A stretch of DNA of 63,246 nucleotides, filler included. It is 4 parts of 4 records of this genome, joined end to end, with 100 filler letters (N's around TTAATTAATTAA, not from the genome) between each part and the next. Parts side by side here need not be neighbours in the genome. Positions count along the whole stretch, not along the records: positions 32,066 to 51,691 come from SRR31156797_4919; 3 more parts are not named here. One strand, given 5' to 3'. Of the stretch, positions 13,364 to 62,314 are shown one piece after another; within the stretch, counting starts at the first letter, position 1, and each line of letters begins with the position of its first letter. Below the pieces are notes generated by a model that worked only from the letters and a program-made list of their open reading frames with translations, ran no database searches and had not been told where the DNA came from. Made by a program: the position numbers and the translations under genes.

Positions 13364-13463
13364 NNNNNNNNNNNNNNNNNNNNNNNNNNNNNNNNNNNNN
13401 NNNNNNNTTAATTAATTAANNNNNNNNNNNNNNNNNNNNNNNNNNNNNNNNNNNNNNNNNNNN
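13364..13463. other. Artificial contig linker
   Basis: N44-TTAATTAATTAA-N44; stop codons in all six frames. Confidence 0.99.
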
Positions 13464-17255: not shown

Positions 17256-17262
17256 GGCGGAG

Positions 17263-18591: not shown

Positions 18592-18621
18592 GTTACAACA
18601 ATAAACACATACAGACACACC

Positions 18622-31965: not shown

Positions 31966-32065
31966 NNNNNNNNNNNNNNNNNNNNNNNNNNNNNNNNNNN
32001 NNNNNNNNNTTAATTAATTAANNNNNNNNNNNNNNNNNNNNNNNNNNNNNNNNNNNNNNNNNNNN
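31966..32065. other. Artificial contig linker
   Basis: N44-TTAATTAATTAA-N44. Confidence 0.99.
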
Positions 32066-32386
32066 AAATACATCTGCTCCAGTTCCCGCTGGCCCATCCT
32101 GCACTATCTTTGATCCTGCTGCCATATCTGAAACAGGTTCGAATTCTACCGGAATCCCATATTTAGCTTTAAATTTTTCCGCTACTTCCATTAGGAACTC
32201 CATTTTAGCACCTTCTGCTTCCCACACAAGGAGTTCTGCTCCCTCTTCCGGCATTACTTCTCCAGTAGAAGATGTTTTGGTTTTAACCTTTTTCTCTTTC
32301 TTCTTGCTAAACCATGCTGCTTCAACTTCAGTAAAAGTTGTCACAAGCGTCGCCAATAAAACTCCGACAAATAATAACTTTTTCAT
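32066..32386 (-). CDS. Maltose/oligosaccharide-type ABC substrate-binding protein, 3'-truncated
   Basis: Signal peptide; L.VWE...F.AKYGIPV...DGPAGTGADVF typical of the MalE/CycB group; GGGAGG RBS. Confidence 0.85.
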
Positions 32387-32810: not shown

Positions 32811-33500
32811 TCAACTCAAATTCTCTCTATTTTTATTCTTTCTAAACTCATTTGGGGTTAAACCTGTAAACTTCTTGAATACTCTATTAAAATAACTTTG
32901 TGAGCTATATGAAAGTTGGATAGAGATATCTAGTAAACTTTCATCACTGGTTTCCAGTAATTGCTTGGCATGCTCAATTTTTATATAGTTAATATATTGC
33001 TTAATAGTCATTTTCTTACTTTGTTGAAAAACATTTGAAATATAACTTTCAGATGTTTTTAGATAATCTGCTATATCCTTTATTGTAATCGACTCATACT
33101 TATTCTTATGTATGTAATTTAGTATTTTAATAACAGTTGGGTTAACTTGCCTTGATTTATCAAAATAGATATCCGAAAAAAACTCAATAATTTGATATTC
33201 AAATTTATATAAGTAATCAGTATTATCCTTTGCAAGAAGCAGATTAATCAAATTTTCTGCTACAACAAGAGATTGTTCAGCGGGAACTCCCTTATGTATG
33301 ATTTCTCTTGATAAAGAAGTAATAAACATAATTAGTCTCAACATCTTTGTATCATAATCTATATCCTTTTGTTTTTCCGTCTCTTGCCTTAATGCTATTT
33401 TAGATTTTAATTTCTCTATATTCTTTTGAAAAAAAAGATTCATGATCTCTTTTTCCTCTTCATAAGATATATAGTAATATTCACTATTGCTAGTTTTCAT
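32811..33500 (-). CDS. AraC family transcriptional regulator
   Basis: C-terminal ITIKDIA...SYIS..F...YSSQSYFNRVFKKFTGLTP.EFR double HTH. Confidence 0.92.
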   Translation of the reverse strand: MKTSNSEYYYISYEEEKEIMNLFFQKNIEKLKSKIALRQETEKQKDIDYDTKMLRLIMFITSLSREIIHKGVPAEQSLVVAENLINLLLAKDNTDYLYKFEYQIIEFFSDIYFDKSRQVNPTVIKILNYIHKNKYESITIKDIADYLKTSESYISNVFQQSKKMTIKQYINYIKIEHAKQLLETSDESLLDISIQLSYSSQSYFNRVFKKFTGLTPNEFRKNKNRENLS

Positions 33501-33519
33501 TTTTCATCTCCAAATAAAT

Positions 33520-34203
33520 CTATCTATGTAAAGCTTTGTACTGTTTAGGTGTAAATCCTGTTTTATTTTTAAATACTCTGCAAAAATAACTATAACTATT
33601 AAAGTAAAGTTGCTCACTTATCTCAACTGGAGTTTTCTCTCCCACTTCCAATAGTTGTTTTGCTCTATCTATCTTTCTAATAATAATAAAAGATTTTAGA
33701 GAAATATTTTTCTCTTTTTTGAATATATGTGAGACATAACTTATGCTTAAATTCAGATATTCAGCCACGCTTTTAACAGTTATAGAAGTATCTAAATTTA
33801 TGTTCACATGATTAATAATTTTATTTACTACAAAGTTATTTTCCTGCCAATCCTTCTCATAAATTTCAAATAGTTCTTTCAATATTTTTATTTCAAGCTT
33901 TTGCAGATCCTCAGTTTTTGTAACTTCAAGAATTTCATTAACAGCTTTATCAACATATCTCATTATCTTGACAGAGTTTGCACTATACTCTATTAAAGTA
34001 CGTGATAAAACTGTAAGTAAAACTACCATATTTTTAACTTTATTTGGGTGTCGCATTTCATCTCTTTCTTCTTCATGATGTTGCTCTATTATTTTTATTG
34101 CAGTTTCATAATCAAAATTTTTGTAATAATATAAAAATTTCGTTTCCTGCTCATATGAAAGAGTAGAATGAAACAATTCTCTGACAAATTTATATTTTTT
34201 CAT
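33520..34203 (-). CDS. AraC family transcriptional regulator (paralog of the adjacent gene)
   Basis: ITVKSVA...SYVSH.FK...SYFCRVFK..TG.TP.QY. Confidence 0.92.
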   Translation of the reverse strand: MKKYKFVRELFHSTLSYEQETKFLYYYKNFDYETAIKIIEQHHEEERDEMRHPNKVKNMVVLLTVLSRTLIEYSANSVKIMRYVDKAVNEILEVTKTEDLQKLEIKILKELFEIYEKDWQENNFVVNKIINHVNINLDTSITVKSVAEYLNLSISYVSHIFKKEKNISLKSFIIIRKIDRAKQLLEVGEKTPVEISEQLYFNSYSYFCRVFKNKTGFTPKQYKALHR

Positions 34204-34420
34204 AATTTTTCCTTATATTAATAATCTGTTTTTCTTATATTATAGCTGAAAATCTTAAATTTTAATAACTTTTTTGATTTCATAGCAGATTTTTACTAAA
34301 TAGATAAAATTAATACAAAAGTAAAAGAATCTAAAATTATATAATTACCCTATTAGCTATATTTGTTTGAAAATCTTAAAGGCATATCAATTTTATTTAC
34401 TATTTTTAGGAGGAAAAATT

Positions 34421-35509
34421 ATGTTTAAAAATCTTGAATACTACAAACCAAATTTGGAAAAAACAATTGTAACTATGCAAAAGGCATATGATGATGCGCA
34501 TGCTAGAAAAGGGGGTAATGTAACTGTATTATCAATGTCTCCTGACATGCATGTTGGCGGAGCACTGGATCTTACTAAATATAACGGATTTGAAAGTGAT
34601 GAAGATATTCAGAGATATATTAAGGATACTGTTGAATTATTTGAAAAAACTATGGAGCAGAGAAAAGATATCGATGACAATCTTATACCTTCTGTATCAA
34701 TAAATATAGGAATCGGAGATTTTTCAGCCTTTGTTACAGGTGAAATCATATTCAAACCTGATACTAGTTGGAGTCCGCATCCTCTGGAAGGAAAACCTAT
34801 ATCTGATTATAAAAAATTTCCTGAATTAGGAACAGCAAAATGGTACAAAAGATATTTATATATGGCTGAGGAGTTAATTAAAATAGCAGCTCCAGCAGGA
34901 ATTCCATTCTCAAGAGCATATTTCTCACCTCATGATATGGTTCATGCTCTCAGAGGAAATGATGTGTATTTTGATTATTATGATCATGTTGAGGAGATAA
35001 AAGAACTTCTGGATTATTGTGCTGATGCTATTATCAAATTTGGCGATGATATCCTTGAACTTATGAAAAAATATTATCAAGATACAAAATACGGTATGTT
35101 CTTAATGGACGGGTATGTAAATATGTCAGAGGATGGCGCATGTATGATCTCACCTGAACAGTATAGAGAGTTTGGTGCTCCATATGCTCAGAAAGTTATA
35201 AATCATTTTGGTCGAGGACAAATGCATTGTCATTCCAGAGCAATGTATTTAGTAAAGGAAATATGTTCATTAGATAACGTAGTTAGCTTATGGCTGGCTA
35301 CTGATCCAAATCAACCGAAACCTATTGAGCACATTGATGAAATTGTAGAGGACGCTAACGGTGTATTTCTTGCAATAGATGCTGAAAAACCTGAAGAAAT
35401 CACAAGTCAAATTGATAAATTAAAAAAAGGAAATTTTTCAATATATTTTCCTTCTGAAAATAAAGATAAAGCAAAAAAATCAATTGATTATATAAATTCA
35501 CTATTATAA
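34421..35509 (+). CDS. URO-D/methyltransferase-fold protein (divergent type)
   Basis: D...ALRG..Y.DYYD..E.IKELL, SED.ACMISPEQYREF..PY and MHCHS; AGGAGG RBS before 34421. Confidence 0.75.
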   Translation: MFKNLEYYKPNLEKTIVTMQKAYDDAHARKGGNVTVLSMSPDMHVGGALDLTKYNGFESDEDIQRYIKDTVELFEKTMEQRKDIDDNLIPSVSINIGIGDFSAFVTGEIIFKPDTSWSPHPLEGKPISDYKKFPELGTAKWYKRYLYMAEELIKIAAPAGIPFSRAYFSPHDMVHALRGNDVYFDYYDHVEEIKELLDYCADAIIKFGDDILELMKKYYQDTKYGMFLMDGYVNMSEDGACMISPEQYREFGAPYAQKVINHFGRGQMHCHSRAMYLVKEICSLDNVVSLWLATDPNQPKPIEHIDEIVEDANGVFLAIDAEKPEEITSQIDKLKKGNFSIYFPSENKDKAKKSIDYINSLL

Positions 35510-35623
35510 TTCAATCGAAGATAAAATATCAATATTGTATTATCAATTAGCAGTTTAGTAAAAGATTTATTAGTAAAGAAGATATATAATTATTAGAAAT
35601 AATGGAAATATGAGGTGATTGAG

Positions 35624-36259
35624 ATGGAATGTATATTTGAACAGATATCAGAAAAGTTACAAAAAGGCGATATGAAAAGTATAAGGGAATTAACTCAGCA
35701 ATCTCTTGATGAAGGAAATGGAATTAGTGATACATTGGATGCTTTACTTAAGGGAATGAGTATTTTAGGTGATAAATTTAAGAAAAATCAAATTTTTGTA
35801 CCTGAGGTATTAATGGCTGCCAGGGCAATGAATTCAGGACTTAATATTCTCAAACCACTTATGAAAGCTGAAGGAGTGGAACCAAAGGGAAAAGTTATAC
35901 TTGGAACTGTCAAAGGTGATCTACATGATATCGGTAAAAATTTAGTTAAAATGATGATGATTGGAGCAGGATTAGAGGTAATTGATCTAGGAGTAGATGT
36001 ATCAAAAGAGCAATTTATCGATGCAATTGAAAAAGAAAATGCTGATATTATTGCAATGTCAGCACTATTAACAACTACCATGCCATACATGAAAGAAGTC
36101 GTTAAAGCTTTAGAAAAAAGGGGAATAAGAAATAAGGTAAAAATTATGATAGGTGGTGCTCCTGTAACAGATAAGTATAGGGAGTTAATCGGAGCCGACA
36201 GATATACTCCTGACGCGGCTTCGGCAGCTGAAGAAGCTAAAAATCTCATTTTGACATAA
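35624..36259 (+). CDS. Cobalamin-binding corrinoid protein (MtaC/MttC-like)
   Basis: Cap domain FVPEVLMAA plus GTVKGDLHDIGKNLV, SALLTTT and MIGGAPV B12-binding motifs. Confidence 0.95.
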   Translation: MECIFEQISEKLQKGDMKSIRELTQQSLDEGNGISDTLDALLKGMSILGDKFKKNQIFVPEVLMAARAMNSGLNILKPLMKAEGVEPKGKVILGTVKGDLHDIGKNLVKMMMIGAGLEVIDLGVDVSKEQFIDAIEKENADIIAMSALLTTTMPYMKEVVKALEKRGIRNKVKIMIGGAPVTDKYRELIGADRYTPDAASAAEEAKNLILT

Positions 36260-36288
36260 TTCAAAATTATCCTCTCAAGTAAAATTTT

Positions 36289-36314
36289 AAAGGCTTCCGA
36301 TACAGGAAGCCTTT
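36289..36314. terminator. Bidirectional terminator
   Basis: AAAGGCTTCC-N6-GGAAGCCTTT between convergent genes. Confidence 0.8.
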
Positions 36315-36319
36315 ATTTC

Positions 36320-39300
36320 TTATAATAATTTAATAGTTAATATTTCAAAAGCTTTTGCACTAAGTGAAATTGAATTATTAAGCATATTTATACTTCTCTC
36401 TTTTTCTTCCATTAGATTAACTATTAAGGCTTTTTCAAAATTAAAACTCGAATTTAAAATAAAATTTGTCTCAATTCCTGTTGTTTCATAAACTCTAATA
36501 ATGATACCTTTTCCATCTTCACTTTTTTTAATAGTTTCAATTACAATATTTTCTTTATTAACATTAAAATATGAATTGCTATGAGAAAATACTCCTTTAA
36601 CTAACGCAAGTTTTCTTATACTCAAAGGAGTTGAAAGTGAATAAGCTTCTTTAACTACTTTTCCTTCTGAGAAATTACCTTTATGAGGAAAAATTGAATA
36701 AGTAAACTCTTGTTCACAGATATCTCCATAATGAAGTGAAATATAATTAAGATCATTTTTATCTAAAAATTCTGCTCCAGGTTTCTTCTGACTTCTTAAC
36801 AAAGTTATTTCAAGTGCTTGTTCTTTTACCCGATAACCATATTTATAATCTGATAATATTGCTATTCCTCGATTATTTTCGGAAATGTCCACCCATCTTT
36901 GTGCAGGTATTTCATCTTTTGCAAAATCCAAAGTAGTTTTATCTTGAGTCGGTCTAGCTATCGCTCCAAATTGAATTCCGCACATTGCAGTTTCTGACTT
37001 AATAGTTATTGGAAATTTTGCCTTTACACTTGTATCTGTTTCTTTCCAATTAATTTTAGTTTTAAAATCAATTCTCTTACTATCTTCTATTAAACTTATC
37101 TCTTGAATAATTTGAGAATTTTTATACTTATAAATCTGTTTTGCTGCAACTTTTGCTCCATCAACTACTAACTTCATTTCGATTAATTTAGCTTTAGCCT
37201 GCCTCCTGTCTCTATAACCTTGTGCAAAATCCCAAGCTGGATACATAGCTGCTCTTTCATGATATATTGTAATTATATTAGCCAAATCATTCTCAGGAAT
37301 AAATTCATAATTCAGTTCTTTATCATAAATTGATTTTATCCCTCCATTATCATCAAATTCAATTTTTAAGTAATTATTCTCTATCCGCTTATCTTCTGCA
37401 AAACATGAAAACTCTTTTTTACATTCTTCAAGTTCAATTACTTTATACCCCATTGCCGGAACCTTAACTCTTTGCCATTTTTTAGCTATTTTTACCCATT
37501 CATCTCTTACCCAAGAACTGTTATTATATAGAACATGAGGTTTTCTAAAAGCTCTAGTATCAATTTTCTCTTCAATTACTAACTGAGCATTCTCTATTAG
37601 TTCTCTCACTTCATTTAGTAAGACATCATATCTTTTTAAACTCTCTTTGTAAACTCTACCAATGGAAGAGCCAGGTAAAATATCATGGAATTGATATAAT
37701 AGAACTTCTTTCCAGATTTTATCTAATTTTTCTTTTGGATACTCATACTTATCTATTTTTGACGCTAAGACACAATAAAATTCCAGTTCTCTAAGTGATT
37801 CTTCCATTAATTTATTATATTTTTTATTCAATGATTCCGATGTAAATGTCCCCTGATGTTTTTCAAAATATAACTCTCCATTCAAAACAGGTAACTTATC
37901 TCTATACTTTTCAATATCTTCAAAATAATCACAGGCCCTCTTTTGCTTAATCTTTGGTAGACCATCTAAATTACTTATTCTTTTCAATCTTTCAAGATGC
38001 TCTTCTCCCGGACCTCCTCCTCCGTCTCCCACTCCGTAAACCATCAAGGCTTCAGGAACTATATCTTTCTCTATATAATTTGCTTCTATTTTCAAAGACG
38101 AGCTGGCTCTCGCTCTTCCATCATAAGTATCCTCCGGAAAATTATGCATAATAAGTTCAGAATCATCAATTCCCTTCCATCTAAACAAATGATGCGGAAA
38201 CTTATTAATCTCATTTTGTGATAATTTCTGCGAACCTATATATTTAATTCCGGATTTTAATAGTATTTGTGGTAAAGCTCCTGTGAATCCAAATACATCT
38301 GGTTCCCATAAATTATTAACCGTAGTATTAAACTCCTCTTTTAGATATTTTAGTCCATACAAAATCTGTCTAATTAAAGCTTCACCGCCTGAAATATTTA
38401 GATCTGCCTCTACCCAGAAGCAACCTTGTAATTCAAATCTTTTTTCATCAACATATTTTTTTATCTTGTCAAAAAGTTCAGGATAGTCCTCTTTTACCCA
38501 TTCAAACAGCTGATACTGGCTTGCTCCAAAAATATAATCAGGATAAGTTTCCATGTTTTTTACTGCAGTTGCAAATGTTCTTGCAGCTTTTCTTCTTCCT
38601 TCTCTCACAGGCCATGTCCAGGCAATATCTAAATGTGCATGCCCAATTGCACTAATATTAAAGTCATTATTTTTTGATTTTTTATAATATTTCTGATTTA
38701 ATAACTCTTTAGCTTTTCTAATATTTTCATTAGTTAAATTAAGTAATATCTTATCTAATTCTATTAAAAGTTCTCTAATTTCCTTATCTTTATTAATAGA
38801 TTTGCTTATTTCAATATTATGAACTCCTTGAGGTTGATGTGACTGAAATCCATTTTCTCCCTCAAGCCAATCGGAAAATATTTCAATATCATAATAGAGG
38901 TCTTTCAATTCATTGTCACAAATACCTATATGGGCATCTGTAATAATTCCACCATTTTGAACATATCCAAAAAGGTCATTACACCCTGCATCTATCCAAA
39001 ACTCTATAAAGTCACCTGTTTTTTTCTCCTCTATCTCTACTACCCATTTTCCGGGTTTATCAGGTGGAATTCCATAAGATGAAGTTTTGTTCGTTATTCC
39101 CCTTATTACCTTGCCGGTTTCATCAAAAACTAAACCTTCACCACCAATATCCACTAATAATACCAACTGTTTTGATTCATTATACTCAGGAATGACAGCA
39201 CTTAATTTCATCCAGGCACAATCAAATATATCACCCCAGGCGTCTCCAAGCTCTAGAACTCTATTTTCTCCTGACATCTTATTATTCCACTTCATCGGTT

Positions 39301-39403
39301 CCATTGTAATCCATGCTTCTATTTTTAACGGCACAAGCTTTTTGTAGACATTTTTCCCGATTTTTTCTTTTAGTAAAAAAATGTTTTCTTTCTTCTCTAA
39401 CAT
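36320..39403 (-). CDS. Glycoside hydrolase family 38 alpha-mannosidase
   Basis: GHAHLDIAWTWP, W.PDVFGF, YGVGDGGGGP, GELYFE.H.GT and QFHDILPGSSI motifs. Confidence 0.95.
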   Translation of the reverse strand: MLEKKENIFLLKEKIGKNVYKKLVPLKIEAWITMEPMKWNNKMSGENRVLELGDAWGDIFDCAWMKLSAVIPEYNESKQLVLLVDIGGEGLVFDETGKVIRGITNKTSSYGIPPDKPGKWVVEIEEKKTGDFIEFWIDAGCNDLFGYVQNGGIITDAHIGICDNELKDLYYDIEIFSDWLEGENGFQSHQPQGVHNIEISKSINKDKEIRELLIELDKILLNLTNENIRKAKELLNQKYYKKSKNNDFNISAIGHAHLDIAWTWPVREGRRKAARTFATAVKNMETYPDYIFGASQYQLFEWVKEDYPELFDKIKKYVDEKRFELQGCFWVEADLNISGGEALIRQILYGLKYLKEEFNTTVNNLWEPDVFGFTGALPQILLKSGIKYIGSQKLSQNEINKFPHHLFRWKGIDDSELIMHNFPEDTYDGRARASSSLKIEANYIEKDIVPEALMVYGVGDGGGGPGEEHLERLKRISNLDGLPKIKQKRACDYFEDIEKYRDKLPVLNGELYFEKHQGTFTSESLNKKYNKLMEESLRELEFYCVLASKIDKYEYPKEKLDKIWKEVLLYQFHDILPGSSIGRVYKESLKRYDVLLNEVRELIENAQLVIEEKIDTRAFRKPHVLYNNSSWVRDEWVKIAKKWQRVKVPAMGYKVIELEECKKEFSCFAEDKRIENNYLKIEFDDNGGIKSIYDKELNYEFIPENDLANIITIYHERAAMYPAWDFAQGYRDRRQAKAKLIEMKLVVDGAKVAAKQIYKYKNSQIIQEISLIEDSKRIDFKTKINWKETDTSVKAKFPITIKSETAMCGIQFGAIARPTQDKTTLDFAKDEIPAQRWVDISENNRGIAILSDYKYGYRVKEQALEITLLRSQKKPGAEFLDKNDLNYISLHYGDICEQEFTYSIFPHKGNFSEGKVVKEAYSLSTPLSIRKLALVKGVFSHSNSYFNVNKENIVIETIKKSEDGKGIIIRVYETTGIETNFILNSSFNFEKALIVNLMEEKERSINMLNNSISLSAKAFEILTIKLL

Positions 39404-39540
39404 TTCGTCATCCTTTCTTAAATTGATAATAATAATAATCTTTTTAACTATAGATAATATAAGTATATAATCTTTTTATTGCAAAATCTTGCATTATCTT
39501 GGTAAAATATATAAAAATATTGCTTTATAGGAGTTGAGAA

Positions 39541-40422
39541 ATGAAGTATATTGACTATCAGGAAACAGAAAACATTGGAACTAATTTTTTTCATATTTGC
39601 TATCAAAATACTATTTTTGGAGATGAAAATAAGGAAATGCACCTCCATTGGCATAATGAAATGGAAATTATCAGAGTATTATCAGGAGAAATGATTTTTT
39701 ATATAGATGGAATTGAAAAAAAAGTTAAAGAAGGAGATATTTTATTACTATTACCTAAAGTACTCCATTCTGGATTTAGTACAAATAATTCTCAATGTCA
39801 ACTTGATAGTTTGATGTTTGGTATAGGGATGTTAAAGAGTCAGGGAATGGATTCTTGCGAATCACGATATATAAACCCACTTCTATCTGGAGAGTTTGTA
39901 TTTCCAAATATAATTAACAAAACTTATTCTTTCTATGATGACTTAAATAATTTAATTAGCAATATAAAAATATTAATTGAAAATAAAAATTATGCTTATG
40001 AATTTAGTGTTAAATCTCAGCTATTTTCATTGTTCTTTATTTTATTTGATAATAAATTAAATAAAATAAACACTGAATTTAAGAGAATGAATAAAAAAGT
40101 GGATATGTTAAAAGACGTTATTGAGTATATTGAAATCAATTATTCAACTAAAATAACTATAGAAGAGGCAAGTAAATCAGTTAATTTAAGTAAATTTTAT
40201 TTTTGCAAATTTTTTAAAAATATGACAGGTATTTCTTTCATCCCATATCTAAATGATTACAGACTTGCTAAAGCTGCTAACATGATAATCTCAAGTGATG
40301 AATCGATTACAGACATAGCTTTCAAATGCGGATTTGAAAGTTATTCATATTTTATTAATTTATTTAAAAAAAAGCACTTAAATACTCCATTAAATTATAG
40401 AAAAAAATACAGGATATACTAA
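39541..40422 (+). CDS. AraC family regulator with a cupin sensor domain
   Basis: LHWHNEMEI cupin motif; FCKFFK...ITDIA..CGF...SYF HTH. Confidence 0.93.
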   Translation: MKYIDYQETENIGTNFFHICYQNTIFGDENKEMHLHWHNEMEIIRVLSGEMIFYIDGIEKKVKEGDILLLLPKVLHSGFSTNNSQCQLDSLMFGIGMLKSQGMDSCESRYINPLLSGEFVFPNIINKTYSFYDDLNNLISNIKILIENKNYAYEFSVKSQLFSLFFILFDNKLNKINTEFKRMNKKVDMLKDVIEYIEINYSTKITIEEASKSVNLSKFYFCKFFKNMTGISFIPYLNDYRLAKAANMIISSDESITDIAFKCGFESYSYFINLFKKKHLNTPLNYRKKYRIY

Positions 40423-40453
40423 TTGTTTCTTTAAACTTTATTTATTTTAAGCA

Positions 40454-40519
40454 TTGTATTTATAGATTATCGCTGGTATAATAGTATTAAAAACAGAGTA
40501 GTCTTAAAAGTACTACTCT
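40454..40519 (+). promoter_or_regulatory. Promoter plus leader dyad for the 40558 gene
   Basis: TTGTAT-N17-TATAAT with an extended -10 TG (40454-40482); AGAGTAGT-N9-ACTACTCT at 40495-40519. Confidence 0.55.
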
Positions 40520-40557
40520 AAGCTATTTTTTTTGATACGATATGCGGAGGTAATACA

Positions 40558-42438
40558 ATGAATGATAATTATATTGATTTAGGAATGACAAAGGCAAAAG
40601 CTTCATATAGAAAATTTATTAGAAATTCAAAAGTTTTTTTAGGATTGAATCTATTTAAAAAAAATAATGATTTAAAAAAATTTATAGAGGTGCAGAAAAA
40701 GTATAAAGCATACAATAGTGTTAGTTTGGGGATAAAAAATGTGCCTATTAATGAAATAGTTGGAAGTGTACAAAAATACGCTGATTTTGGCAGGAATTTT
40801 GTGCCAAAAAACGAGATTGTTGAAGACAGATGGTGTAGTGTTTATCTTGCATTTGAAAATGATATATCACTTCCTCCTGTAGAACTATATAAGGTCAAAA
40901 ATGAATATTTCGTTTATGATGGTAATCACCGAATATCAGTTTATAACTTCTTAAAATTCAAAACTATAGAAGCTGAAGTGATTGAATATTTACCCTCTAC
41001 ACAAAACAAAGAGGATATAATCTATAGAGAGCAGTTTCTATTTGAAAAGGAGTATGATGTTAAAGATATCATATTTAGTGAAGTTCATTTTTATAGAAAA
41101 ATAAAAAAAGAGATTCAGGATTTCAAAAGTTATTTAGTGGAAAAAGAGGAGAAAGAAGTTACTAATAAAGAAGCTGCTATGATCTGGCATACTTCATTGT
41201 ATCTTCCTGCTATACGAATATTAGAAGCAAATGATCTGCTTCAAATTATCAAAGACAGAACTATTTCTGATATTTTTATGTATTTTCTTGATCATAAATA
41301 TTACAAAACATTAGAGGCAAATCTCAATGTGGTTTATTCATATGCAATTATTGATTTTATCAATCATGTAAAGACCTATTCAGATGCAGCTGTTGAAAAT
41401 AGAGCTAAAATAGAAGGAATACTTAGAAGTGAATATTACAAAATAAGAGAAATAGAAGAAAAAATGGAGATGGATAAAGTAATTTTGCGTAAGCTGAATA
41501 TTTTAAGGGAAAATACCAAACTTAATTTTAAACTTAACTATACTTCTACTTTGAACGAAATTGATAATTATTCTGAAATAAAGGGAATACTTAATTACAA
41601 AGAAGCAGTAAAAGAATGGTATAAAGAACATGTTATGGATTTAATAGATGAGTTCAAGTTAAGAGTTTCTGAGCTTCCTAAGAGATACTCCGCTCATTTA
41701 GATGAGATCTCAACAGATTATGAGCTTCTATTTTATCACTTCAAATCTTATCCGCTTATTTATGAAAAAAAGTATAACAAAAAAGTCGAGGGATTAGTGG
41801 CAAGTTATATACTTGATATCTATATCCCATTAGTAGAGTTTATAAGCAGAAAAATAATAAATGAAAATAGTGTCAACAGAGTTTACAAAGGAATATACTC
41901 AAAATATATCCAGCTCAGCACCTATAATGAAAGCTTAAGCCTAATCGATACAGCTGAGATGTTTATGAAATATAAAGATGCTAAAAGTAACAATAACTTT
42001 GACCTGTTTGCTATAATTAGTTCAACTAGTCCGAGACCAAATAAGATGCTTGAGAGAAGTTTAAGCACCGCTGAGTCCAATGTTTCTTCATTCTTAAAAG
42101 ATAGTATGAAAAGATATGAAAAACTCGCTGATCATGAGTCAGTACATAAATTTGAGGAGATCTATTTTCAATATTTGGACAAATACTCTAACAGGAAAAA
42201 AGTTGAATCAAAATTCAAAAAGGATTTAGAAATACTATTTGATAATAAGGACTTAAATATCTTCTTTAAAAGCAGGTGTGTTTCTATGAAACTTAACACC
42301 GGTGGAAATACCAGCTTTCTTGAATTTTATATTAGTATAATAAATTCGGCACTTTATTGTGGTCATAATATTGACTCAAGCATTACCGAATTAACTGATA
42401 AATATATAAAAACATTATGTGAAATAAACTATGACTAA
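40558..42438 (+). CDS. ParB/Srx-like N-terminal domain protein (DUF4032-associated type) with a long helical C-terminus
   Basis: VPINEIVGSV.KY.DF...F.P...RW...LPPVELYK...YFVYDGNHRISV. Confidence 0.75.
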   Translation: MNDNYIDLGMTKAKASYRKFIRNSKVFLGLNLFKKNNDLKKFIEVQKKYKAYNSVSLGIKNVPINEIVGSVQKYADFGRNFVPKNEIVEDRWCSVYLAFENDISLPPVELYKVKNEYFVYDGNHRISVYNFLKFKTIEAEVIEYLPSTQNKEDIIYREQFLFEKEYDVKDIIFSEVHFYRKIKKEIQDFKSYLVEKEEKEVTNKEAAMIWHTSLYLPAIRILEANDLLQIIKDRTISDIFMYFLDHKYYKTLEANLNVVYSYAIIDFINHVKTYSDAAVENRAKIEGILRSEYYKIREIEEKMEMDKVILRKLNILRENTKLNFKLNYTSTLNEIDNYSEIKGILNYKEAVKEWYKEHVMDLIDEFKLRVSELPKRYSAHLDEISTDYELLFYHFKSYPLIYEKKYNKKVEGLVASYILDIYIPLVEFISRKIINENSVNRVYKGIYSKYIQLSTYNESLSLIDTAEMFMKYKDAKSNNNFDLFAIISSTSPRPNKMLERSLSTAESNVSSFLKDSMKRYEKLADHESVHKFEEIYFQYLDKYSNRKKVESKFKKDLEILFDNKDLNIFFKSRCVSMKLNTGGNTSFLEFYISIINSALYCGHNIDSSITELTDKYIKTLCEINYD

Positions 42439-42443
42439 AAACC

Positions 42444-42482
42444 AAAATCTGAGCAGAGAAATATGATCTCTGCTCAGATTTT
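42444..42482. terminator. Bidirectional terminator
   Basis: AAAATCTGAGCAGAGA-N7-TCTCTGCTCAGATTTT perfect 16-bp arms. Confidence 0.85.
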
Positions 42483-42491
42483 TATTAATAA

Positions 42492-43493
42492 TTACAAATA
42501 TAAGATTTTATTCATTGCTAATAAATTTTCACTCGGAGTTGCTGCCGGTACTTCACAGCCTCCTGCCATAAAGGTTTTTTCATCTGCTATTTCAAGTAAT
42601 GCTTTTGTTTTCGATACAATGCTATCAGAGTCTGTTCTTTCCATCTCTCCTACCGGATCAAGATTTCCGCTTACACAAGTTTTAGTACCTTTGAAAGTCT
42701 CTACCGCTACTTTGAAATCAACTACGTGATCTACATCAAGCATATCTACTCCCAGCTCTTTAATTTTAGGTAATAAAGGCTGAATGTTACCACAGATATG
42801 AAGTTTCATCTTCGCACCCATTTCCTGTATCTCTTCGCACATTTTCTTCTGATAAGGGAATGCAAATTGCTCATATAACTCAGGCCCTATTAATGAAGCT
42901 GCAGCATCTCCTACACCGATTATATCTGCTCCTGCCTTGATCTGTTCTTTTGCAAACCACATATTCTGCTCATAAGTCTTCTCAAGTAATTCTTTGCAAA
43001 ATTCAGGTTTCATGATCAAATCCATCATCATCTCACTAAGCCCCCTTAAATCAGCTGCTTCAGCAAATGCTCCCTCTACCCAACCAATAATCGGATACTT
43101 ATCTCCTACTTTTTCTTTATAAAGTTCAACTGCTTTGATCCTATCAAGCATTCTCTCAGATTCACGTGGATTTACAACTTTTACTTTTGAAATATCATCA
43201 TAATCCTGAATCAAATGATTAAGTGAATATGGAACTCCATCCTCAGGGAAAACTACTTCCGCACCCATTCCCTCTGCTTCTCTCATCGGATCAGACATAC
43301 ATGTTACGAAATCAATACCGTATTTCTCTGCAAATTTGATATTTCCCTCAACTAATTTCTCATAATTTGTGATAAATTCCTTATAGCTGCACCCTATCTC
43401 TTTCGCAGCTATTTGCATAATCAAATTACAATTTGGTATCTTATCTACTTCTTTTCCTTCAAACCTGTTCATAACCCGTTCTTTTGGTGTCAT
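42492..43493 (-). CDS. MtaA/CmuA-type corrinoid methyltransferase (URO-D family)
   Basis: MTPKER, EAEGMGA, AGADIIGVGD, and the zinc-ligand pattern LHICG ... GNLDP ... GGCEV. Confidence 0.88.
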   Translation of the reverse strand: MTPKERVMNRFEGKEVDKIPNCNLIMQIAAKEIGCSYKEFITNYEKLVEGNIKFAEKYGIDFVTCMSDPMREAEGMGAEVVFPEDGVPYSLNHLIQDYDDISKVKVVNPRESERMLDRIKAVELYKEKVGDKYPIIGWVEGAFAEAADLRGLSEMMMDLIMKPEFCKELLEKTYEQNMWFAKEQIKAGADIIGVGDAAASLIGPELYEQFAFPYQKKMCEEIQEMGAKMKLHICGNIQPLLPKIKELGVDMLDVDHVVDFKVAVETFKGTKTCVSGNLDPVGEMERTDSDSIVSKTKALLEIADEKTFMAGGCEVPAATPSENLLAMNKILYL

Positions 43494-43514
43494 TACTACC
43501 TCCTAAAGTGAAAA

Positions 43515-43784
43515 TTATTTTTCTATCTCTTTTTTACCTAAGCTTTTAATTTTATAAACTAATATTGTCATCGCTAATACAAGAGTTATCAGATTCGCTG
43601 AAAATATAGCTATATCTTTCAAGTGAGCACCATAGAGCACCCACAAGAAAACTCCTATATTAAACATCAAATACATCCAAGTAGAGATACCATCAGTATT
43701 TTTAGTTTTTATTGTCTTTATCGCTTGCGGCAGAAACGAACTAGTCGTCAAAACTGCTGCAAGCACTCCTATTATCCTAAACAT
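43515..43784 (-). CDS. SemiSWEET sugar transporter
   Basis: IG..AA.LTT.SFLPQ.IK..KTK.T.GIS PQ-loop motif and LW..YG; 3 TM. Confidence 0.93.
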   Translation of the reverse strand: MFRIIGVLAAVLTTSSFLPQAIKTIKTKNTDGISTWMYLMFNIGVFLWVLYGAHLKDIAIFSANLITLVLAMTILVYKIKSLGKKEIEK

Positions 43785-43809
43785 TGCTTTACTCCTCTTT
43801 AATAATTCG

Positions 43810-43833
43810 GGCGTATATCAATACGCCCTTACT
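43810..43833. repeat. REP-like palindrome
   Basis: GGGCGTAT-ATCA-ATACGCCC followed by TTAC (GTAA foot on the minus strand). Confidence 0.5.
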
Positions 43834-43853
43834 CCCCTAAATACGTTCAATAG

Positions 43854-43900
43854 GTTGCCCCTTATCAGGGGGATAACCGATAACAAAGGAAGGGGGTTAG
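43854..43900. repeat. Purine/pyrimidine CCCCT..AGGGG element, copy 1
   Basis: GGTTGCCCCTTATCAGGGGGATAACC...AAAGGAAGGGGGTTAG. Confidence 0.45.
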
Positions 43901-43916
43901 CCCTAAAAGTAAGAAC

Positions 43917-45830
43917 TTAGCCCTTAAAAGTAACCTTTCTCAAAATAGTCCCACCTAGAGGTAAAAATTCCTTCTTCTCTAACTGCTTATGTCTGCTATG
44001 ATAAAGATCACCTGTTAATTTGATACTTGTACTCCACGGGTCTTTTTCGTTAAACTCTCCCATCACTATATCAAAATGTGGAACAGAATCATCTTTCAGA
44101 TGCAGATAATTAAATTCATGATTTGTAGGTCTATAATATAAATCTCTATAGGTTCCAACTTCAAAAGTTTTTGTTACTTCTTCCTGAGCATCAAGATTAA
44201 GAGCAAATAACAGTGGTCCTCTCGTTACAAACTTTTCTCCCTGAAGATCAGTTTTTAACTCTATATCCGCTATAAAATTAACTTTAATTTCTTCTGTCCC
44301 TGACCAAGTTTTAGAAATAATTATCTTATTTCTTTTAATCTCACTCTTAACTGACTCTCCGTTTATTAATACATCTTTTGCCCATACAGGTTTTCTAAGA
44401 GATAATTCGAACTCTACCTCTTTTTCAACAGATATTTTCAGATCTACATTCAGATCAAAAGGATAGTTTGTAAGCTGTTCAACATTTATTTTTGTCCCAT
44501 TTATCTCAGTATTAACTGATGACGCCCCGTAAAGTGGAATAGCTATTCCTTTATCTGTTTTCATGGCCATAGATTTTACGAAATACGGCAGTACTCTTCC
44601 TGCATTTGGTACACAACAAACTGCTACATCCTGATGTGCAGGTGAATATTTGAATCTGAAATCAGGACTTCCGTTATGACTCTTTCCCTCTTTTTTAGCT
44701 CCAACCATTGTGTACGAATTATCAGTTTTACAATATGCTATTAAACTCTCATGTGGATGTCTTGCTCCCTGTCCTGCATTGTACAGAAGCCACTCCATTT
44801 TATCTGCCCAGATAAAATCACCTGATTTTTGAAGCAGTAAACTATATGAATCCAGCAACTCGTGAATAGAGCAATATTCATATCCGGTTTCCGTTGAATC
44901 TGCTGCTCTTTGGAATACCCATTCATCTCCAATAGGCCCTCCAGACGGCGTTAAATGATAGCTTAGCTTATTTAGATAAGCATCAAGAGCTCTTCTATAG
45001 TTTTCTTCTTTTGAATTATAAGCTGCAACTATTAGAGTTCTAAGCTGCTCATATGTATGAACTGCGTGTCCCCAGAATTTATAATCATAATCTAACAAAT
45101 TATGAATCTGAATATCCGGTTCACTCAAAGTATTTGAATTGTAATTATCATATAACCAAACTGCATAATCGGCATATTCTTTCTTCCCGGTTAATTGATA
45201 TAATCTATCCAATGCATCAGTAATAGTAAGTCCATGTGCATGACCGGCATATGATTCTTTTTCAGCTTTAAATGGATCTGACTTGTCTTTTTTATATGAG
45301 TTCATTGTAACCGACATAGCTCTCTCGACTGCTTCCAGTACTCTCTCTTCACCAGTTGCTTCGTAATAACCAAGCAGTACTCTAAACAATGAAGATTGTG
45401 CCCAAAGTTCACCATTTTCTCCATCAAAATTATATCTAAGATCATCTTCGTAAATCCCTAAATAGCCGTCTTCATCTTGAGTAGATAAGATATAATCTAC
45501 ATAATCTTTTGTTTTCTTTAGATACTCTTCACTCTCTGTTAGAAGAGCTGTTCTAACATAACCATCTCTCCAGTTAGATTGAGTCTCACTGTTCCACCAC
45601 AAATACTGAACTTCCCAATCTGCATCTTGTGAGATAGCACCTACATCTTTGCTCTTCACATGTTTTGTTAATCTATTTTTTCCATATATATCATCTTCTA
45701 ATATTAAGTCCGGAACTAATTGATCCAAATGACCAATAAATCCATTCTCCAGATCATTTTTCATCTGCTCATACATCCAACCTTTTGCTTTAATTTCACC
45801 AAATTTTAACCACATATTCTTTTCTTTCAT
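43917..45830 (-). CDS. GH127/GH146-like glycoside hydrolase (beta-L-arabinofuranosidase superfamily)
   Basis: IKAKGW, Q.EDGYLG, YEYC, ME.LLYNA, VCC.PN, TNYPF and RGPLLFAL motifs. Confidence 0.85.
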   Translation of the reverse strand: MKEKNMWLKFGEIKAKGWMYEQMKNDLENGFIGHLDQLVPDLILEDDIYGKNRLTKHVKSKDVGAISQDADWEVQYLWWNSETQSNWRDGYVRTALLTESEEYLKKTKDYVDYILSTQDEDGYLGIYEDDLRYNFDGENGELWAQSSLFRVLLGYYEATGEERVLEAVERAMSVTMNSYKKDKSDPFKAEKESYAGHAHGLTITDALDRLYQLTGKKEYADYAVWLYDNYNSNTLSEPDIQIHNLLDYDYKFWGHAVHTYEQLRTLIVAAYNSKEENYRRALDAYLNKLSYHLTPSGGPIGDEWVFQRAADSTETGYEYCSIHELLDSYSLLLQKSGDFIWADKMEWLLYNAGQGARHPHESLIAYCKTDNSYTMVGAKKEGKSHNGSPDFRFKYSPAHQDVAVCCVPNAGRVLPYFVKSMAMKTDKGIAIPLYGASSVNTEINGTKINVEQLTNYPFDLNVDLKISVEKEVEFELSLRKPVWAKDVLINGESVKSEIKRNKIIISKTWSGTEEIKVNFIADIELKTDLQGEKFVTRGPLLFALNLDAQEEVTKTFEVGTYRDLYYRPTNHEFNYLHLKDDSVPHFDIVMGEFNEKDPWSTSIKLTGDLYHSRHKQLEKKEFLPLGGTILRKVTFKG

Positions 45831-45980
45831 TATTTATCCTCACTTTCACTAACAAAATCAAAATCTTAACCGTGCTTTCGCAGCACACGCGCAAACCTTA
45901 CGTTTGATCGTTTATAAAACCAAATAATTAATTCTAAACTATCAAAATTTCTAACACTTAAATACCCGAATACTATACTT

Positions 45981-46018
45981 TTCCTTTCCCCTTACCAAGG
46001 GGAAAGATAGAAAGGGGT
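45981..46018. repeat. Purine/pyrimidine CCCCT..AGGGG element, copy 2
   Basis: TTCCTTTCCCCTTACCAAGGGGAAAGATAGAAAGGGGT. Confidence 0.5.
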
Positions 46019-47752
46019 CTAAACCCTTTTCAAAATAGCACCACTATTTTTATGTATTAGAATCTCATTCTCAAGTATCATTCCTGTAAGTAAATCTTTG
46101 TACCTACCGTCAAATCTCTGAATATATTCAAACTCTCTTCTGTTAATATAAACTACTATCTCTTCATCTTCTAGCGTTCTCTTATATCCGACTATTTCAT
46201 CGTGAATAAACTCTACTTCTCCTTCTGTTAAAGCTTTTTCTGAATTTCTAATATTGATTAATTTTCTGTAGAAATTTTGTAACTCTTTGTTTTGTTTCTT
46301 CTCATCCCAGATCATTCCCTGTCTATTCTTAGGATCTTCTTCTCCTATCATCCCTACTTCATCACCATAATAGATCATAGGACTTCCTGTAAATGTCATT
46401 TGAAGCAAAGCTATCATTTTCATTCTAGCCAAACTATTTCTATGATCTCCAAATATTCTAGGTGTATCATGACCACCAATTAAATTCCATAAGATGCTAC
46501 ATGGTTGCCTCATATATTTTGCATTTTGAAGCAGTAGATTTTTCTTTAAACTTTCCAAACTATCATTCTCTAGAAAATATGAGTACATCGCTCCCATAAA
46601 TCCATAATTCATCACTGAATCAAACATATCTCCCTGTAGCCACGTCGTAGCATCGTACCAGACTTCACCTATAATTACAGCATCTGCTTTAGCATTTTTA
46701 ACTGTTCTTCTAAAGTCTCTCCAAAATGTTCGCGAGACTTCATCTGCTGCATCCAGTCTCCATCCATCAATATCAAACTCTTTTATCCAGTACTCTGCTA
46801 CTCCAAGGATATACTTTGAAACTTCTGCGTGAGGAAGATTTAATTTTGGCATATCGTATTCATATGCGAATGTTCTATAGTTTGGTAATTGATGATAATC
46901 ATAATTTTGTAAAGGGTAGGAATCAACATAATACCAATTTTTATATTTTGATTTCTTTCCTTTCTCTTTTAAATCTTTAAATGCGAAAAAGTTATCACTT
47001 GTATGGTTAAATACTGCATCCAGTACTATTTTTATTCCCTTTTTGTGTGCTTGCTTTACCAACTCTCTAAACTCTTCTTTTGTGCCAAGTTCAGGAGAAA
47101 TCTCATAAAAATCCTCTATGTCATATCTATGTGGTGTTGGAGATTTAAAAATTGGATTCAGATATAAACATGATATTCCCAGTTCTTTTAGATAATCCAA
47201 TTTATCCATTATTCCTCTGAAATTTCCTCCAAGGAAAGTATCTCCCTCCACGTCATACTCCCATGCTTTCAATTCTCTTTTAGTTTTAACTTTATCATTT
47301 CTGGCAAATCTATCTGGGAATAAATTATAAACAACTGAATTTTTCATCCACTCTAGTACTACGAACATATCTGCTTCTGATAGAGAAGACGTATCAAATG
47401 AAAATCCTAAGTTAGGAATATCTCCACTAAAGAAAATATCTCCTCCCCATCTAACTATCTCATCCCATGAATAAAGCTCGAAGAAATAATTTACACTAAT
47501 CCCCTCATACTTCACTACAGCTTCAAAATAATCATACATATCATCTGATGCTATTTTTTTCATCTCAACTGGTTCCCATTGAGTTTTAACACCTCTTTTT
47601 TGCTCTCTGATATATATAAATTTACATTGGTGATATAAAATAACTTTATTTAGATCACCTTTTGAAGCTTTTAATTTAATAACTATATTATCCTTGTCGA
47701 GTAAATACGCATATTCCGAATTTATCCGATGATATAACGCCTGCCTGTTCAT
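46019..47752 (-). CDS. GH13 cyclomaltodextrinase/neopullulanase-type alpha-glycosidase
   Basis: N-terminal Ig domain, FPDRF, LYLNPIF, DAVFNH, DGWRLDAADE, GEVW and HDTPR; start after GGGAGG. Confidence 0.93.
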   Translation of the reverse strand: MNRQALYHRINSEYAYLLDKDNIVIKLKASKGDLNKVILYHQCKFIYIREQKRGVKTQWEPVEMKKIASDDMYDYFEAVVKYEGISVNYFFELYSWDEIVRWGGDIFFSGDIPNLGFSFDTSSLSEADMFVVLEWMKNSVVYNLFPDRFARNDKVKTKRELKAWEYDVEGDTFLGGNFRGIMDKLDYLKELGISCLYLNPIFKSPTPHRYDIEDFYEISPELGTKEEFRELVKQAHKKGIKIVLDAVFNHTSDNFFAFKDLKEKGKKSKYKNWYYVDSYPLQNYDYHQLPNYRTFAYEYDMPKLNLPHAEVSKYILGVAEYWIKEFDIDGWRLDAADEVSRTFWRDFRRTVKNAKADAVIIGEVWYDATTWLQGDMFDSVMNYGFMGAMYSYFLENDSLESLKKNLLLQNAKYMRQPCSILWNLIGGHDTPRIFGDHRNSLARMKMIALLQMTFTGSPMIYYGDEVGMIGEEDPKNRQGMIWDEKKQNKELQNFYRKLINIRNSEKALTEGEVEFIHDEIVGYKRTLEDEEIVVYINRREFEYIQRFDGRYKDLLTGMILENEILIHKNSGAILKRV

Positions 47753-47949
47753 TTCTACAACCTCCCAAAACTCCATTAAAAATAAATAATAATTTAAATA
47801 ACACTATTTTAATATTGATATATCAACTGAGTTCTAATATAATATAATTATACTTAGTTTTTTCATAACTTTCTTGCTCTATATTGACTATTAATAACAC
47901 TATATTGATATTTTTATTTTTTTATCAAAAAATGACTATGAGGTGAAAA

Positions 47950-48843
47950 ATGGAAAACCAAAATTTAACAGTACTGAAAGAAAATGTAAATCACGGAGAT
48001 TTTATGCTCCCGCTTAATGTTTATTATGATATTCTCACTAAATCCAAAAATGATCTTGATGTTCATTGGCATGAAGAGATGGAGATTATATACGTTGCTT
48101 CGGGAAAAGGAGAAGTACAAATTGATTTAATTAATTATGAGATATCAGAGGGAGAATTTATAATAGTCAAAAAAGGAGCTTTGCACTCTGCAAACGGAGT
48201 AGAGAGTTTTCCCTGTGAATGTTACACTATAGTTTTTAATATAAATATAATCAGGAGTTATGCTATAGATTCCACTCAGGTTAGTTATGTAACTCCCATT
48301 CACAAAGATAATATCTCTATAAAGAATTTGATCACTCCAAAGGATAAAGAGTATTCAAGAATCAAAGAAACTTTCTTCGATATAATCAATACTTTTAGGG
48401 CAAAAGAAACTGCTTATGAGTTAATAATTAAATCTGATTTTTTTAAGTTATTTGCAATATTATTCAAAGAAAAGTATATAGAAGAGTCATACGAAACAGT
48501 AAGTGCTGCGCAGAATAGAAAAATTGATAAAATAAAAAAAGTGATTTTGCACATACAAAATCACTATAAGGAGCATATTAAAGTTAAGGATTTAGCTGAT
48601 TTGATAAATCAAAGTGAACATCATTTTTGTAGATTTTTCAAATCACAAACTAATCAAACCTGTACTGAATATATTAATTTATACAGAGTTGGTAAAGCTG
48701 CATTTTTACTTGCAAATTCTGATCTTAGTGTAACTGACATAGCATTCGAAACAGGTTTTCAAAATATATCATATTTTATCAAAATATTCAAAAGAAAATG
48801 GTTATTATCTCCCACAGAATATAGGAAAAAAATGAAACATTAA
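47950..48843 (+). CDS. AraC family regulator with a cupin sensor domain
   Basis: VHWHEEMEI; FCRFFK; VTDIAFETGF.NISYF. Confidence 0.93.
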   Translation: MENQNLTVLKENVNHGDFMLPLNVYYDILTKSKNDLDVHWHEEMEIIYVASGKGEVQIDLINYEISEGEFIIVKKGALHSANGVESFPCECYTIVFNINIIRSYAIDSTQVSYVTPIHKDNISIKNLITPKDKEYSRIKETFFDIINTFRAKETAYELIIKSDFFKLFAILFKEKYIEESYETVSAAQNRKIDKIKKVILHIQNHYKEHIKVKDLADLINQSEHHFCRFFKSQTNQTCTEYINLYRVGKAAFLLANSDLSVTDIAFETGFQNISYFIKIFKRKWLLSPTEYRKKMKH

Positions 48844-51691: not shown

Positions 51692-51791
51692 NNNNNNNNN
51701 NNNNNNNNNNNNNNNNNNNNNNNNNNNNNNNNNNNTTAATTAATTAANNNNNNNNNNNNNNNNNNNNNNNNNNNNNNNNNNNNNNNNNNNN
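51692..51791. other. Artificial contig linker
   Basis: N44-TTAATTAATTAA-N44. Confidence 0.99.
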
Positions 51792-61887: not shown

Positions 61888-62314
61888 GACCCCCCTCCTT
61901 TTTACGTTCCTGCGGATATGGAACCGCCGAATAACAATAAGCAGCGCCAAATTTTCAGCCTGAATTTAAATACATTATTTCACTATTTTTCTTTGATGTG
62001 TATAGCTACTGCAATTCTTATGCTGATTTTTTGCAAGTCAGAAGAGGATCATGCCAAATTGAGGAAAAATGACAGAAAAATCAGCCCTGTGAAATTAATT
62101 CCTAAAGAAAACTGCAGATAAAAAAATGCAAATAAATAAAGGATTTTCCTTCTACCCTAAATTGCAATTTCAGGGATTATCAGCCAAATAAAATATATGA
62201 AGCCAGTCTCAAGATTTCGCCATAATAAAAAACTAACAGGTTTATTTCATTCGTTCATGAATGATATGAAACAAAAAGCTTACACCCTATTGTTTTTACA
62301 AAAAATAACCAAGC

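Follow-up and report, generated by a model that had tools for sequence, protein, structure and literature searches.

Can the O-methyl group of a sugar be removed without oxygen, that is, by way of a corrinoid (B12-binding) methyl carrier? The question is raised by a gene cluster found within a 63,246-nucleotide stretch of DNA, the whole of which is referred to here as the window. This window consists of four contigs joined by N-linkers, with guanine-plus-cytosine (GC) contents of, in order, 0.34, 0.47, 0.30, and 0.53, and with linkers (13364-13463, 31966-32065, and 51692-51791) which each are made up of 44 N, TTAATTAATTAA, and then another 44 N. As the joining is artificial and the contigs are very different in GC, genes on either side of a linker are not true neighbors. 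All of the genes that a first-pass annotation of the window had named sit on the third contig (32066-51691; 19.6 kb; GC 0.30), and its observation that no reactivase is present in the window therefore reaches only as far as those 19.6 kb.

Two genes of that contig are central. The term ‘A’ is used here for the open reading frame (ORF) at 34421-35509 (plus strand), which encodes a URO-D/MtaA-fold protein of an uncharacterized family and which, based on fold, residues, and neighborhoods, is a candidate substrate-specific methyltransferase I, i.e., an O-demethylase. The term ‘B’ is used for the ORF at 42492-43493 (minus strand), encoding an MtaA-like His-Cys-Cys methyltransferase (PF01208, E 1e-63) that is a candidate thiol-methylating methyltransferase II. 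The answer argued for here is that A probably demethylates methylated glucose sugars without oxygen, as its sequence and gene company suggest. More fully, I lean modestly toward a reading in which A moves the O-methyl of an imported, methylated alpha-glucan sugar to the corrinoid protein, with B-type enzymes then passing that methyl to a thiol. A, that is, would work like a corrinoid O-demethylase, without membership among the aryl O-demethylases being implied and with gene context pointing to sugars. No report of corrinoid sugar demethylation was found in the literature searched, most subscription journals lying outside of that search's coverage.

Proposed Pathway

In the operon's canonical form, O-methylated malto-oligosaccharides would be taken up by way of an X25/SusE-like lipoprotein at the surface and a MalE-type ATP-binding cassette (ABC) importer, and would be trimmed by esterases and GH13. 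A would then bind the methoxy oxygen of the sugar by means of an Asp/His-x-His/Asp site, probably one that carries a metal, and would transfer the methyl to the Co(I) of the corrinoid protein. From there a His-Cys-Cys enzyme (here B, which may share one corrinoid protein with A) would hand the methyl to a thiol, e.g., sulfide or homocysteine or, alternatively, a separate pterin-binding enzyme would hand it to tetrahydrofolate (THF) in those lineages that have such an enzyme. RACo, which here would be encoded elsewhere, would reactivate the cobalt, and the freed glucose would be fermented. Each of these chemical steps, like the acceptor, I infer; what was observed is the identity of the genes, their folds and conserved residues, and their linkage and co-occurrence.

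ORF A and Its Corrinoid Protein

In terms of sequence, A is only distantly recognizable. Its sole Pfam match, to URO-D, is below cut-off (E 0.0047), and a profile search found no solved relative by sequence. The structure model of A (pLDDT 94.7) matches UroD/MtaA by Foldseek (E 3e-9; template-modeling, or TM, score about 0.6), and its top VIA match is MtaA (4ay7; Z 19.7, root-mean-square deviation 3.9, 299 aligned). Residues D86, D172, D238, H269, H271, S272, and D295 are invariant in 77 of 77 sequences, among which no Cys is conserved in at least 90%. A is without the His-Cys-Cys ligand set of MtaA-type S-methyltransferases, having H269-x-H271 instead, and a metal probably is held at the Asp/His-x-His/Asp site. 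Per PMC10418091, S-methyltransferases of the UroD fold have His-Cys-Cys, with O-methyltransferases replacing one or both Cys; by that rule B would be of the S type and A of the O type. A role in heme synthesis (HemE) was considered as well and is ruled out, as against the HemE family (TIGR01464) A has no match and B scores 89.8 bits versus a cut-off of 302.95.

The corrinoid protein is encoded immediately behind A, as the first-pass annotation had noted; the gene (35624-36259, with the start picked by ribosome-binding site) begins 114 bases beyond A and on the same plus strand. Its product, which presumably would serve as methyl carrier, is a stand-alone corrinoid protein with both PF02310 and PF02607 above cut-off and with a DLHDIGKN motif that all 30 of the aligned sequences share without change. 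It is MtgC/MtbC-like, yet falls below the cut-offs of both, and is up to 59% identical to the corrinoid proteins of A operons found elsewhere.

Neighborhoods of ORF A Relatives

Relatives of A were searched for with an alignment of 45 sequences, i.e., the window's plus 44 of 120 listed matches, and neighborhoods were considered for the best 80 of the 82 genome stretches so found. Record titles of these loci name Izemoplasmatales, Acholeplasmataceae, Clostridia, Thermotogota, and Anaerolineae, and one carrier of an A operon is a named strain, Longilinea arvoryzae KOME-1 (L080). Across the 80 loci, tblastn most often detects sugar ABC genes (75 loci) and GH13 (59), followed by a second O-type URO-D family (44), corrinoid genes (37), X25/SusE-like lipoproteins (36), RACo (24), PocR-AraC regulators (24), TrmB regulators (23), esterases (22), LacI regulators (20), His-Cys-Cys methyltransferases (20), SASA esterases (7), and GH38 (2). 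If only the 34 loci of at least 18 kb are considered, then ABC genes are present in all 34, GH13 in 31, and corrinoid genes in 18. A frequent arrangement among the A loci is for the corrinoid gene to come immediately before A. An ORF-called GH13 is found no more than 4.9 kb from A in 57 of the 80, on A's strand in 56 of those 57, versus a single match when the same GH13 queries are applied to 80 B loci (1 of 45 if restricted to those of at least 6 kb). The linkage of A to sugar genes is beyond chance. Pairwise identities of A and of GH13 also are correlated (Spearman 0.89 across 52 loci, a value that none of 999 permutations reached), which could come in part from shared ancestry alone. The one operon solute-binding domain compared has Thermotoga MalE2/MalE1 as best match among non-fusion entries, and one lipoprotein, without a Pfam match, is X25/SusE starch-binding-module-like by language-model features.

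The first-pass annotation had proposed an anaerobic, sugar-demethylating cobalamin relay and had suggested looking for its recurring linkage to sugar genes. This core idea withstood that check, as A relatives are linked both to genes for sugar uptake and to RACo, with GH13 and maltodextrin-type ABC genes as the recurring company; the O-methyl sugar as substrate I infer. GH38, GH127-like, and SemiSWEET genes were dropped as conserved partners of A, GH38 being seen in just the 2 of 80 and BLAST matching the window's GH127-like and SemiSWEET genes to no ORF of those loci. The GH127-like gene, rather than being a partner of A, travels with B instead.

The second O-type family has His-x-Cys in 42 of 42 sequences and Asn for the last Cys in 41 of 42. 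No gene for that family, for an X25/SusE-like lipoprotein, or for RACo was found on the 19.6-kb contig. Loci L068-L078 represent a deep Bacillota clade of A in which the ABC importer and an amidohydrolase are kept, mostly without GH13 in the fetched loci. A separate group of S-type URO-D proteins, of about 455 amino acids (L025:18329-19699 and relatives in L026, L028, L034, and L162-L166), has a C-terminal CxxC extension, possibly a built-in thiol acceptor, and these often are encoded beside a CobW-like gene.

Reactivase and Methyl Acceptor

Across 124 genomes of the Izemoplasmatales, the order of G001, A is present in 14, RACo in 16, and both in 12. RACo, that is, is found in 12 of 14 A carriers versus 4 of 110 others (Fisher p 1e-11, with these genomes being related drafts and the samples therefore not independent). 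It is found also in 30 of 30 further A-carrying genomes, which were picked by eye, mostly for the absence of a corrinoid or RACo gene from the locus as fetched (that of L080 does have one). Background rates for RACo are 59 of 150 Clostridia, with one more genome unscored, and 82 of 101 Anaerolineae.

The claim that a methyl-THF transferase must lie elsewhere need not hold. The 14 A-carrying Izemoplasmatales drafts gave no match to PF00809 (pterin-binding), and only 1 of the 124 genomes of the order did; on the 19.6-kb contig as well there was no match to a pterin-binding methyltransferase II. A full-length His-Cys-Cys methyltransferase instead is present in 10 of the 14 carriers versus 0 of 19 non-carriers examined. 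Genome G002 has a corrinoid-RACo cluster of which the first gene encodes a stand-alone pterin-binding protein, and the methyl acceptor therefore probably differs by lineage.

The four RACo-bearing Izemoplasmatales genomes without A are G018, G093, G088, and G092. In G018 (L161, L170), RACo, a corrinoid gene, and two URO-D genes are present, with both of the other URO-D types represented. This core follows genes for rhamnose isomerase, a kinase, an aldolase, ABC components, a SASA esterase, and a GH78-like enzyme, making the cluster a candidate O-methyl-rhamnose pathway that would operate without A. The large cluster of G093 (L164, L169) has three GH38-like genes, four URO-D paralogs, corrinoid and RACo genes, as well as a class II aldolase and PfkB-like kinases. 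No glycosidase was found within the stretch fetched for G088 or G092.

ORF B and the GH127-like Gene

That B is MtaA-like, with HxC...C ligands, and comes last in a co-oriented minus-strand run of GH13, GH127-like, SemiSWEET, and then B, is as the first-pass annotation described it, with a strong terminator-like hairpin ending the run (42444-42482; consensus scan). Residues H232, C234, and C313 of B are invariant in 34 of 34 sequences and align to the same motifs of 4ay7 (E 2.5e-25, 26% identity), with the TM of the B model versus MtaA being 0.91. Against the MtaA/CmuA family TIGR01463, B scores 182 bits versus a cut-off of 235.4, and it is below all NCBIfam cut-offs. From these residues B is a candidate thiol-type (S-type) methyltransferase. 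Its best named relative is from a Fusobacteriaceae bin (58%).

The neighborhoods of B relatives, considered for the best 80 of 569 metagenome loci, are mixed. A corrinoid gene is found in 10, and a glycoside hydrolase within about 5 kb of B in 12 of the 45 loci of at least 6 kb, with nine different families represented (203 neighbors scanned). Some B orthologs sit beside nucleoside genes, i.e., those for a BMP transporter (L168) or for a phosphorylase and adenine deaminase (L117). In L083, L084, and L106, a corrinoid gene and a B ortholog are immediately followed by chemotaxis genes (CheB, CheR, MCP).

The window's GH127-like (DUF1680) glycosidase (43917-45830, minus strand; PF07944 E 2e-18) is of a divergent clade, with 4qjy as best structure match (E 2e-22). 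A search based on this gene alone, i.e., without using B, found orthologous loci in three genomes, one among 401 of Bacillota and two among 251 of Anaerolineae, and in two of those three a B ortholog directly adjoins. In G413 the order of AraC, GH127-like, and B genes is the same as in the window, and in G728 the pair lies between debranching-enzyme genes. In G695 no B was present within the 15 kb fetched, and there the GH127-like gene is in reverse orientation, flanked by a maltose-type ABC set on one side and by an esterase-GH13 pair on the other. Among the metagenome loci, B adjoins the GH127-like gene in L112 and is two genes away from it in L138.

This adjacency, along with the nucleoside-gene neighbors, lends something to the idea that B is instead a donor-side S-demethylase acting on a methylthio-sugar that the GH127-like enzyme releases, with the window then joining two distinct modules that perhaps share a corrinoid protein. 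His-Cys-Cys enzymes in addition are able to run in either direction, according to PMC10418091. The very mixed neighbors of B orthologs, however, are what would be expected of a shared acceptor enzyme, and the GH127-like family is present also in aerobes, such that it can do without a corrinoid relay. I consider a donor-side B to be fairly unlikely, and as an explanation of B it is compatible with A being a sugar O-demethylase.

Weighing the Reading

A number of observations weigh against A as sugar demethylase, or against this locus as a single relay. A is only 11-13% identical to MtaA/UroD, its His-x-His is no described methyltransferase motif in those parts of the literature examined, and A may not itself be a methyltransferase. 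Of the 34 A loci of at least 18 kb, 16 are without a corrinoid gene, no A gene is present in the best 80 B loci, and in the window 7 kb separate A from B, which is on the other strand. As evidence, RACo co-occurrence is tempered by the high Anaerolineae background and the non-independence of related genomes. Identity of the window's GH13 to the GH13 partners of A's 15 closest relatives is 30-36%, i.e., below both the expected median (43%) and the 5th percentile (38%), and its placement within the main partner clade was rejected (p-AU, from the approximately unbiased test, 0.013; 23 of 59 rows). Lastly, since in G018 there is a corrinoid core without A, it could be the second O-type family that actually demethylates.

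The trees behind these statements were quick ones for the full A and GH13 sets and a careful one for 27 A rows. A, the GH13, and the binding-protein fragment (below) each point to L051, along long branches, and with branches so long a grouping of the window's GH13 with that of L051 is a lead only. Overall the locus has the look of a rearranged mosaic, in which a version of the A module is combined with a B module, and its hydrolases therefore may not all feed one relay; GH38 membership particularly is uncertain.

A could alternatively be viewed as a metal-dependent accessory enzyme (a hydrolase, lyase, or epimerase) acting on an imported alpha-glucan derivative, with the second O-type family doing the demethylating. 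Consistent with that possibility are A's His-x-His/Asp site and absence of a conserved Cys, its TM of only about 0.6 versus MtaA, an A-versus-B-family profile alignment that spans just residues 108-263 and so leaves the ligand region unaligned, and the A-less corrinoid core of G018. But in the window it is A that the corrinoid gene directly follows, with no second O-type gene on the contig, and elsewhere too corrinoid genes often immediately precede A. In addition, known methyltransferases I of the UroD fold vary in metal use, with CdmB using none (PMC13222342). An accessory role for A I consider to be improbable.

Substrate and Direction

If A does demethylate a sugar, then gene context points to an alpha-1,4-glucan that carries O-methyl substituents and possibly acyl ones as well. 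Might the donor not be a sugar ring at all but a methoxylated aglycone, a methylated cyclitol, or methanol freed from a methyl alpha-glucoside or ester by GH13 and esterases? Esterases are found in 22 of the 80 A loci, and the characterized O-demethylases of the UroD fold use methoxylated aromatics (PMC13222342). No recurrent aromatic-degrading or MtaB-like family was recognized, however, among the 24 representatives scanned from the 80 clustered loci, A-locus regulators are of TrmB and LacI types, and the resemblance of the lipoprotein to starch-binding modules indicates a polymer as substrate. A donor other than a sugar ring is viewed as distinctly improbable.

One polymer that fits by description only is mycobacterial methylglucose lipopolysaccharide, in which, according to PMC6016469, 6-O-methylglucose, glucose, and 3-O-methylglucose are present at 11:8:1 and which is acylated, with an amylase-resistant core. 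That this methylglucose polysaccharide is the actual substrate is doubtful, as also is the broader speculation of the A operon being a dedicated anaerobic pathway for the methylglucose lipopolysaccharide of actinobacteria, i.e., for an acylated alpha-1,4-glucan. With that speculation, esterases would remove the acyl groups, GH13 would cut the polymer, A and the second O-type partner would each take one kind of methyl ether, and the His-Cys-Cys enzyme would discard the methyl as methanethiol. Non-acetogenic fermenters, if this were true, would be recycling a recalcitrant polymer of dead cells and feeding methylated sulfur to methanogens, and the window's GH38 would widen the pathway to methylmannose polymers, the latter resting in part on a single passage of PMC6016469.

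The system running biosynthetically, that is, methylating the cell's own glucan, is hardly credible: corrinoid methyl transfers are reversible and glycogen phosphorylase genes occur in 3 of the 80 loci, yet A operons are dominated by importers, hydrolases, and sugar-responsive regulators, with no glycosyltransferase family recurring among the representatives scanned.

Other Features of the Locus and Window

At the left end of the contig, and absent from the first-pass annotation, is a fragment (32066-32386, minus strand) that encodes the N-terminus of a maltodextrin-type ABC solute-binding protein and is cut by the contig end, beyond which the remaining importer genes probably lie. Its best BLAST matches are to solute-binding genes of A operons (L074, L075, and L068; E 5e-8 to 9e-8), and it is 46% identical over 63 amino acids to that of L051. 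Upstream, at 32463-32435, is a 12-of-12 match to the sigma-70 consensus, a kind of site that is at chance level overall (112 promoter-like sites by consensus scan versus 106.8 in shuffles). A second sugar-binding protein (48918-50279, minus strand; SBP_bac_1, GlcS-like below cut-off) has no permeases beside it and has 29-30% homologs in A loci L025 and L026.

Domain matches bear out the four AraC regulators and the GH38 described by the first-pass annotation as interleaved. Two AraC-family genes are divergent from A (32811-33500, PF12833 E 2e-21, and 33520-34203, PF12833 E 2e-15; both minus strand), with products 24-32% and 23-30% identical, respectively, to PocR-AraC regulators of A operons. 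The other two are Cupin-AraC regulators (PF02311, PF12833; both plus strand), one divergent from GH38 (39541-40422) and one divergent from the GH13 run (47950-48843), the latter with a 31% homolog in G413 that there is divergent from GH127-like and B. The GH38 gene (36320-39403, minus strand) encodes an Ams1-like alpha-mannosidase with four GH38 domains above cut-off and Ams1 as best structure match (E 7e-130), and a terminator-like hairpin, read on both strands by consensus scan (36288-36315), lies between it and the converging A-corrinoid pair. A 626-amino-acid ORF with a weak Pfam match to DUF4032 (40558-42438, plus strand; E 6e-5), also missing from the first-pass annotation, breaks up the sugar locus; it is apparently unrelated, with no match in the 80 A loci. 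The SemiSWEET sugar transporter (43515-43784, minus strand) is above cut-off for NF037968. The GH13 (46019-47752, minus strand, start picked by ribosome-binding site) is of neopullulanase/cyclomaltodextrinase type (neopullulanase 1j0h, E 2e-135), with catalytic-region motifs intact.

For the six window proteins compared, no letter-for-letter match was found in the sequence collection, and for 34001-44000 no RNA holder came up. On other contigs are a 2655-amino-acid protein (53983-61950, minus strand) that combines numerous Ig-like domains with a thrombospondin C-terminal region plus an F5/8 domain, as well as two tandem saccharopine-dehydrogenase-like genes along with an AlaDh/PNT-domain gene (16062-19941, plus strand), behind a sigma-54 activator.

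Implications

Methylated sugars resist degradation, and their breakdown in digesters, landfills, and sediments can now be asked about with an enzyme, a carrier, an importer, and a class of sugar named. Digesters and landfills presumably are the habitats of carriers, going in part by record titles. If the methyl goes to a thiol, then small-genome fermenters without a detectable folate methyltransferase would be an unrecognized source of methylated sulfur. A selective, oxygen-independent sugar O-demethylase also would be a useful catalyst.

Comparison with Known Systems

The nearest parallels to A and its corrinoid protein are the aryl O-demethylases MtvABC, OdmB/VdmB, and MtoB, which are corrinoid-dependent, along with the related CdmBCA dehalogenase; these combine a UroD-superfamily methyltransferase I with a stand-alone corrinoid protein and an ATP-dependent reactivase, and in PMC13222342, MtvB, OdmB, VdmB, MtoB, and CdmB are placed in one superfamily, some members of which are without zinc. 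Of the three components of such O-demethylases, the contig has a UroD-fold candidate methyltransferase I and a DLHDIGKN corrinoid protein. Unlike the Mtv, Odm, and Mto systems, A has a His-x-His/Asp site and is found in a context of maltodextrin import and GH13, and many A carriers gave no match to a pterin-binding methyltransferase II. B, in turn, is like the soluble methylcobamide:thiol methyltransferases MtaA, MtbA, and MtsA (4ay7) in fold (by the TM given above) and in its His-x-Cys...Cys ligands, but unlike them in its 26% identity, its scores below NCBIfam cut-offs, its bacterial host, and its sugar locus.

Type 1 mlp clusters, as treated by Kountz and Balskus (PMC10418091), are similar in having several UroD-fold methyltransferases, a corrinoid protein, and RACo, and also in being without a THF methyltransferase, with sulfide as the proposed methyl acceptor. 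Their proteins, however, are His-Cys-Cys and linked to selenium and sulfur genes, whereas A is without a conserved Cys, and in that text the words sugar, glycos-, carbohydrate, and amylase never occur. A type 1 mlp cluster is defined by at least Mlp2 and Mlp3, both of which are His-Cys-Cys, and the contig has one His-Cys-Cys protein. In terms of outcome the closest likeness is to the Zobellia galactanivorans cytochrome P450, which likewise strips an O-methyl from a sugar so that the sugar can be metabolized (PMC6292453). That enzyme differs in being of an unrelated fold, in needing oxygen and yielding formaldehyde, and in acting on 6-O-methyl-galactose, whereas A would achieve a comparable removal from glucose sugars by way of cobalt and without oxygen.

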